From Squalus acanthias (Eukaryota): a stretch of 64,000 bases of DNA. The DNA is taken from assembly GCA_030390025.1 (NCBI GenBank), contig CM059438.1, forward strand, positions 73,160,001 through 73,224,000, given 5' to 3'. A program made the position numbers and the translations under genes. Shown here piece after piece: positions 48,440-49,052 of the stretch (the stretch's first letter is position 1; each line of letters opens with the position of its first letter). A model generated the notes under the pieces. That model was not told the DNA's origin, ran no database searches, and was given only the letters and a program-made list of their open reading frames with translations.

Positions 48440-48536
48440 CTTGTAGGCGACTCTTGCAGGACATTTCTTTCCCAGGCCTAAGGGTGGACACATGTGTCTC
48501 AACATCTCATACATGTCATTGTAAGTGATGCGCCCA
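48440..48536 (-). CDS. CACNA1B: CACNA1B mutually exclusive exon 37b, 97 nt
   Basis: CTTTTCCAAAAG|T acceptor after a long pyrimidine tract; encodes (C)[41 protein letters not shown] donor. Confidence 0.96.
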
Positions 48537-48955
48537 CTTTTGGAAAAGAAGTGAGGCAAAAGCAAAAAAACAAAACAAAAAGGGAACAAAAACAGAAAGG
48601 AAAAAAACAAAACAGAAATCCAGGTTAATTAAGTTTCCAAAATGGAGGTGCAAGATTTTCCAGTGCAGATACAGGCTTTGCACGGGAATGTGTCTTCTTG
48701 CAATGAAATCTAGGCTCCCTAATCCCTGTTTCAATAAGGAATGATTGACAGTTTAGTAAATGGTAAAAGGATGTATAAATGATGGCTTCCTTTAATAGAA
48801 GATACTTCAAGTCAGCATGCCAAGAAATTTCTAGCAAACTCATAAAAGCTAAATATTGGCGTGAATGGAACAAGATGGTTAGGTCAATCATTCCTATTCA
48901 GATGCAGACAGTCAGGGCTTTTTTGGATACTCTGCTTATCAATTTAATTCCAAAC

Positions 48956-49052
48956 CTTATAGGCCAACCTATGTGGGCAGTTCTTTCCTAAGCCAAGAGG
49001 TGGTGAGATAATACGCAACAAATTGTACATATCCTTATAATGAATCCGGTAA
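48956..49052 (-). CDS. CACNA1B: CACNA1B mutually exclusive exon 37a, 97 nt
   Basis: TTTTTCCAG|T acceptor with TTCTAAC branch-like motif about 22 nt upstream; encodes (C)[41 protein letters not shown] donor; resembles mammalian e37a ([33 protein letters not shown]). Confidence 0.95.

Follow-up and report, generated by a model that had tools for sequence, protein, structure and literature searches.

Mammalian Cacna1b, the gene for Cav2.2, carries in its EF-hand region the mutually exclusive exons e37a and e37b, which are among the closest described counterparts of the locus studied here (PMC7124252, PMC5043047). In mammals, Src targets the tyrosine of e37a to produce voltage-independent inhibition (as cited in PMC5818475 and PMC3971658). 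A YxxPhi motif and a [DE]xxxL[LI] motif, confined in mammals to e37a, promote AP-1 trafficking (PMC5043047, PMC7373241), and in mouse e37a is under the control of CTCF and CpG methylation (PMC7124252). According to Dunn et al. (2018, PMC5818475), nearly all bilaterian Cav2 channels carry the tyrosine, phenylalanine is confined to amphioxus, tunicates and mammalian e37b, and chicken Cav2.2 has both exons with tyrosine in each. The pair is common to CACNA1A (EFa/EFb), CACNA1B and CACNA1E and goes back to a vertebrate-level duplication (Abascal et al. 2015, PMC4494069); the CACNA1A and CACNA1E pairs are homologous to that of CACNA1B, are older than the Cav2 duplications and have tyrosine in their b exons (PMC4494069, PMC3971658). 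The pair that we describe here from Squalus acanthias is very probably a conserved vertebrate CACNA1B 37a/37b pair in the ancestral two-tyrosine state, in which both isoforms are likely open to Src and splicing likely tunes trafficking.

The window, by which we mean the whole stretch of 64,000 nt that was analyzed, contains on its minus strand the 3' portion of a gene for a Cav2 alpha-1 subunit, with exons 36 to 46 in order from 55361 to 5926 (tblastn with shark Cav2.2 proteins). Judged by its distal C-terminus the gene is CACNA1B (Cav2.2), because the last coding exon is nearest to human Cav2.2 (E 5e-56, against 7e-13 for Cav2.3 and 6e-11 for Cav2.1); the value for Cav2.1 ruled out CACNA1A. 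Of 186 residues compared over this exon, 167 are identical in Heptranchias and 165 in Scyliorhinus, against 127-129 in coelacanth, a bird (cuckoo) and crocodile and 104 in rabbit, values that mark the animal as a shark. The features relevant to exon 37 are as follows.

55234..55361, minus strand: CACNA1B exon 36, 128 nt, with a terminal TG and a phase 2 donor (placed by tblastn with shark Cav2.2 proteins, ends read from the splice sites)
49073..49077, minus strand: CTAAC, predicted as the proximal branch point of e37a, with its A at -22 (motif match only)
48956..49052, minus strand: exon 37a (e37a), 97 nt, encoding YKDMYNLL, acceptor TTCCAG, donor GTTTGG (bounded AG..GT)
within 48956..49052, minus strand: e37a motifs YxxPhi (YNLL) and [DE]xxxL[LI] (DMYNLL) (motif match)
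48537..48955, minus strand: intron between e37a and e37b, 419 nt (splice-site reading)
in the intron 48537..48955, minus strand: a stretch of 139 nt without AG and a long U-rich tract, both upstream of e37b
near 48625, minus strand: predicted distal branch point of e37b, at -89 (motif match only)
48440..48536, minus strand: exon 37b (e37b), 97 nt, encoding YNDMYEML, acceptor CAAAAG, donor GTAGCA (bounded AG..GT)
within 48440..48536, minus strand: tyrosine of e37b at the position of human Cav2.2 Phe1750; YxxPhi (YEML) present, canonical dileucine absent
45856..45961, minus strand: CACNA1B exon 38, 106 nt, phase 0 acceptor (tblastn and splice-site reading)
5926..6483, minus strand: CACNA1B last coding exon, basis for identifying the gene and for placing the animal among sharks

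A sequence-only reading of this DNA had proposed two intact 97-nt exons of the same phase, and our coordinates, splice sites and frames agree with it. The two are identical at 60/97 nucleotides and 21/32 residues. Either one supplies the third base of the Cys codon begun by the TG of exon 36, and both end in phase 0. When spliced in silico, e37a alone or e37b alone gave an open frame into exon 38, inclusion of both led to a stop within about 7 codons, and omission of both to a stop within about 3 codons. The stop-to-stop frame around e37a is 40 aa long versus 119 aa around e37b, which fits the remark in the same reading that e37a is invisible in the open reading frame track. The match of e37b to human Cav2.2 cannot be put down to chance, since it has an E value of 3.6e-14. 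Other introns of the window contain long frames that by eye resemble reverse transcriptase and are putative remnants of non-LTR retrotransposons (59540-60769, 14662-15831 and 20725-24139, minus strand); the frame at 59540-60769 has, again by eye, a GIY-YIG-like end.

The shark pair resembles the mammalian one in gene, position, exon order and nucleotide identity between the two exons, which is about 60% (PMC7124252, PMC5043047). Shark e37a is identical to rabbit e37a at 26/32 residues and retains the YKDMY, YxxPhi and dileucine motifs of mammalian e37a (PMC5043047); e37b matches rabbit e37b at 27/32. Three differences separate the shark and mammalian pairs. First, e37b reads DMY where human Cav2.2 (PDB) reads DMF, as the sequence-only reading had noticed, so that tyrosine stands in both exons in place of the mammalian combination of tyrosine in e37a and phenylalanine in e37b. 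With this tyrosine e37b has a YxxPhi motif, whereas rabbit e37b has neither YxxPhi nor dileucine at that position; the [DE]xxxL[LI] AP-1 dileucine motif is found only in e37a (DMYNLL). Second, the two exons differ at 11 of 32 residues, compared with 14 in rabbit and 8-12 in gar, bird, chimaera, anole and catshark. Third, shark e37a starts with tyrosine and not with cysteine. This extra N-terminal tyrosine, also pointed out from the sequence, is real and is common to other sharks (7/8 chondrichthyan e37a proteins). The residue is glycine in chimaera, gar, coelacanth, teleosts and both shark paralogues and, among the matches listed, cysteine in 127 tetrapod-type rows, and the N-terminal tyrosine is probably a substitution of the shark lineage. 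One further record, in which the exon is otherwise tetrapod-like, also starts e37a with tyrosine. Compared with chicken and other nonmammalian Cav2.2 channels (PMC5818475), the shark gene is alike in having both exons, each with the F-helix tyrosine, and unlike in the N-terminal tyrosine of e37a and in MCPP in e37b.

In human Cav2 channels the context of the tyrosine matters. Human Cav2.1 carries both tyrosines, yet it does not respond to c-Vc1.1 and shows marginal voltage-independent inhibition (Berecki et al. 2014, PMC3971658); tyrosine alone is therefore insufficient. Cav2.3, in which the tyrosine is followed by glutamate, responds to c-Vc1.1 and undergoes Src-dependent inhibition, and the substitution Q1856E gave Cav2.1 partial sensitivity to c-Vc1.1 (6.6% inhibition) (PMC3971658). 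Shark e37b has tyrosine followed by glutamate, as in human Cav2.3, and from this correspondence we infer that it is probably Src-competent and that splicing mainly switches the trafficking motif. A competing reading holds that the tyrosine of shark e37b is functionally silent, that e37a alone supports voltage-independent inhibition and that the residues around the tyrosine decide. The behavior of Cav2.1, whose e37b carries the second tyrosine, gives this reading some weight, as does the close identity of shark e37b to the rabbit exon, likewise without a dileucine; we nevertheless regard it as doubtful, given that the glutamate after the tyrosine is the very context that works in Cav2.3 and partly rescues Cav2.1 (PMC3971658), and that the equivalent tyrosine of Aplysia is needed for inhibition (PMC5818475). 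If both shark isoforms are indeed Src-sensitive, e37b would support voltage-independent inhibition through its Tyr-Glu, and e37a would add an AP-1 dileucine motif and thereby bring more channel to the surface. Splicing would then tune trafficking rather than Src sensitivity, with both isoforms open to Src-dependent inhibition. Shark e37b, with Tyr-Glu and no dileucine, is also a natural exon that, in a chimera, separates the phosphorylation role of 37a from its trafficking role.

We examined the distribution of the two residues in 366 proteins, 10 of them without a parsable exon 37, that came from three protein searches (27 of 27 matches, the best 120 of 2846 and the best 120 of 247) and two cluster look-ups; the rows are redundant isoforms and do not count as independent events. 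Among the matches listed, all 176 a-type exons have tyrosine, and the 188 b-type exons divide into 160 with tyrosine, 27 with phenylalanine and 1 misparse of a fused model. The 27 phenylalanine exons listed are all from placental mammals (woodrat, rabbit, hare, bats and tenrecs). No mammal is present among the 160 listed tyrosine rows, which come from sharks, rays, chimaera, gar, teleosts, lizards, crocodile and birds and include a few Cav2.1-labelled and hagfish rows. Within the chondrichthyan set of 38 proteins, 4 do not contain the region, the b exon has tyrosine in 27/27 and e37a is present in 8. The human b-type exons of Cav2.1 (DMYQML) and Cav2.3 (EMYEML) also have tyrosine, against DMF in Cav2.2. 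The sequence-only reading was correct that the mammalian contrast between tyrosine and phenylalanine is absent here. Its presentation of the two-tyrosine state as a feature of cartilaginous fishes did not survive the comparison, as e37b has tyrosine in every nonmammalian sequence retrieved and in the paralogues of the shark itself. Read across these proteins, the polarity is reversed: mammals are the exception and sharks are unchanged. The tyrosine of shark e37b, on this distribution, is the ancestral state, which has already been published. The comparison of e37b across vertebrates that had been proposed as a way to date the change to phenylalanine placed it in placental mammals only, as regards the residue; as regards time it brackets the change just between the amniote and placental ancestors, because the proteins retrieved (best 120 of 2846, best 120 of 247 and the cluster look-ups) contained no e37b from a marsupial, a monotreme or an amphibian.

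Two points in PMC5818475 bear on this distribution. It gives a single exon 37 for Danio; carp and several other teleosts, including Menidia and Coregonus, have models of both a-type and b-type exons, which conflict with the idea that teleosts like Danio possess one exon 37 and suggest a small correction. It also gives one exon 37 for Xenopus. The frog Cav2.2 proteins that we retrieved contain e37a in 8/8 cases and e37b in 0/8, in a search biased to e37a, and e37b may have been lost in frogs. Several database gene models wrongly join e37a and e37b in one protein.

The sequence-only reading started from the enrichment of mammalian e37a in nociceptors and its support of opioid-type voltage-independent inhibition, and had connected the missing contrast to the scarcity of unmyelinated nociceptors in elasmobranchs. 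Unmyelinated fibers are indeed reported to be few in sharks and rays (PMC2780683), and the N-terminal tyrosine of e37a is present in most chondrichthyan e37a proteins. A loss of the contrast in cartilaginous fishes tied to few such nociceptors is nonetheless most improbable: the change happened in mammals and not in sharks, the two-tyrosine state is shared by birds, lizards, crocodile, gar and teleosts, and teleosts (trout) have electrophysiologically defined nociceptors (PMC2780683). As birds and teleosts show, the state is not linked to a scarcity of nociceptors, and it likely says nothing special about pain sensing in sharks.

A search of the shark's own genome returned 9 matches, namely a/b pairs at three loci (CACNA1B and two others, C22 and C2783) and three single Cav1-type exons; the two other loci are named as CACNA1A- and CACNA1E-type paralogues on exon-37 similarity only. 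All 6 of the Cav2 exon-37 copies read DMY. CACNA1B and C22 are identical at 80/97 nucleotides in their a exons and 83/97 in their b exons, compared with 60/97 between a and b within CACNA1B. In 97% of 200 bootstrap trees a single branch (support 78/98, not starred; 97 columns) separated the a exons from the b exons. The exons thus cluster by type and not by gene, which makes the pair older than the Cav2 gene duplications. The most diverged a exon is that of the presumed CACNA1E (C2783:491345-491440), which has DMYTIV, an AWK end and no dileucine and lies in front of an a-b intron of 2327 nt. Within the a-b intron of the window, 41 nt (about 48803-48843, minus strand) weakly resemble the C22 intron (score 32, reached by 11 of 500 shuffles), possibly as an old regulatory element or by chance.

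The paralogous pairs are other genes with the same pattern of splice sites. Upstream of the a exon, all three Cav2 paralogues have a CTAAC motif whose A falls at -21 or -22, and the donor of that exon reads GTTTG; the b exons lack a proximal CTAAC motif and are flanked by an AAAG acceptor and a GTAG donor; this common signature lies at 48430-48545 and 48946-49080 of the window (minus strand) and was seen in both paralogues. A long AG-free zone was considered as a further hallmark of b exons and set aside as weak, with lengths of 139, 106 and 68 nt for b exons versus 35, 56 and 62 for a exons and 121 for a single Cav1 exon. Between the e37a donor and the predicted branch point of e37b there are about 330 nt. 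Steric exclusion operates over distances of up to roughly 50 nt. Steric hindrance was thus rejected as the cause of mutual exclusion, the predicted branch point being too far off, and competing weak sites together with decay of frameshifted forms are the likely route. In such a scheme, mutual exclusion would result from weak splice signals that oppose each other and from nonsense-mediated decay of transcripts with both exons or neither. Each of the two exons contains 2 CpG, and a CTCF consensus, which may differ from the mouse motif, had 0 matches in e37a and 88 elsewhere in the window at three or fewer mismatches.

Models with either exon exist in other cartilaginous fishes. The catshark, a different species, has two RefSeq isoforms of the same length, X3 and X4, with b (XP_038637780) and a (XP_038637781), respectively. 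RefSeq isoforms need transcript support. The e37b of electric ray Cav2.2 (Swiss-Prot P56698), also another species, is identical to that of the window, and this entry we take to be cDNA derived. Contig sets of 4 runs, RNA by guess and taken from a list of 18 runs of which 12 were guessed to be RNA and none is recorded as such, covered no exon between exon 38 and 3' e37a, the constitutive exon 38 included, and so speak neither for nor against the use of either exon 37. One contig of run X1 matches intronic positions 47518-47639 and continues with 124 unrelated letters; the break lies off splice sites and is perhaps an insertion polymorphism. An e37a that sharks have conserved without using it, as its weak GTTTGG donor could suggest, is hard to credit when the exon has an open frame with undamaged splice sites and branch motif, its identity to the rabbit exon is high, e37a-bearing models occur in catshark, horn shark, zebra shark, chimaera and others, and the donor is equally weak in both paralogues.

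As a discovery the locus has little weight: both the exon pair and its age have been published, as has the restriction of phenylalanine to mammals, and both shark isoforms are already in RefSeq. We found no paper that names a shark for the exon 37a/37b pair, in a search that most subscription journals fall outside, and the word "shark" occurs 0 times in the accessible text of PMC5818475. The value of the locus is as an outgroup, as it fixes the two-tyrosine state of Cav2.2 at the base of jawed vertebrates. The change from tyrosine to phenylalanine is very probably a later mammalian step, one that lets the switch control opioid-type inhibition. More tentatively, and with the odds somewhat against it, the switch may have begun as one of trafficking, with the dileucine on or off and both forms Src-sensitive, and mammals may have turned it into a switch of opioid sensitivity by a single change from tyrosine to phenylalanine. 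If so, sharks, reported to have few C-fibers and with an e37a that is nearly unchanged, would use e37a outside nociceptors, and this would be its original job. The a and b splice signatures across the three Cav2 paralogues would, in the same way, represent one regulatory mechanism that is older than jawed vertebrates.
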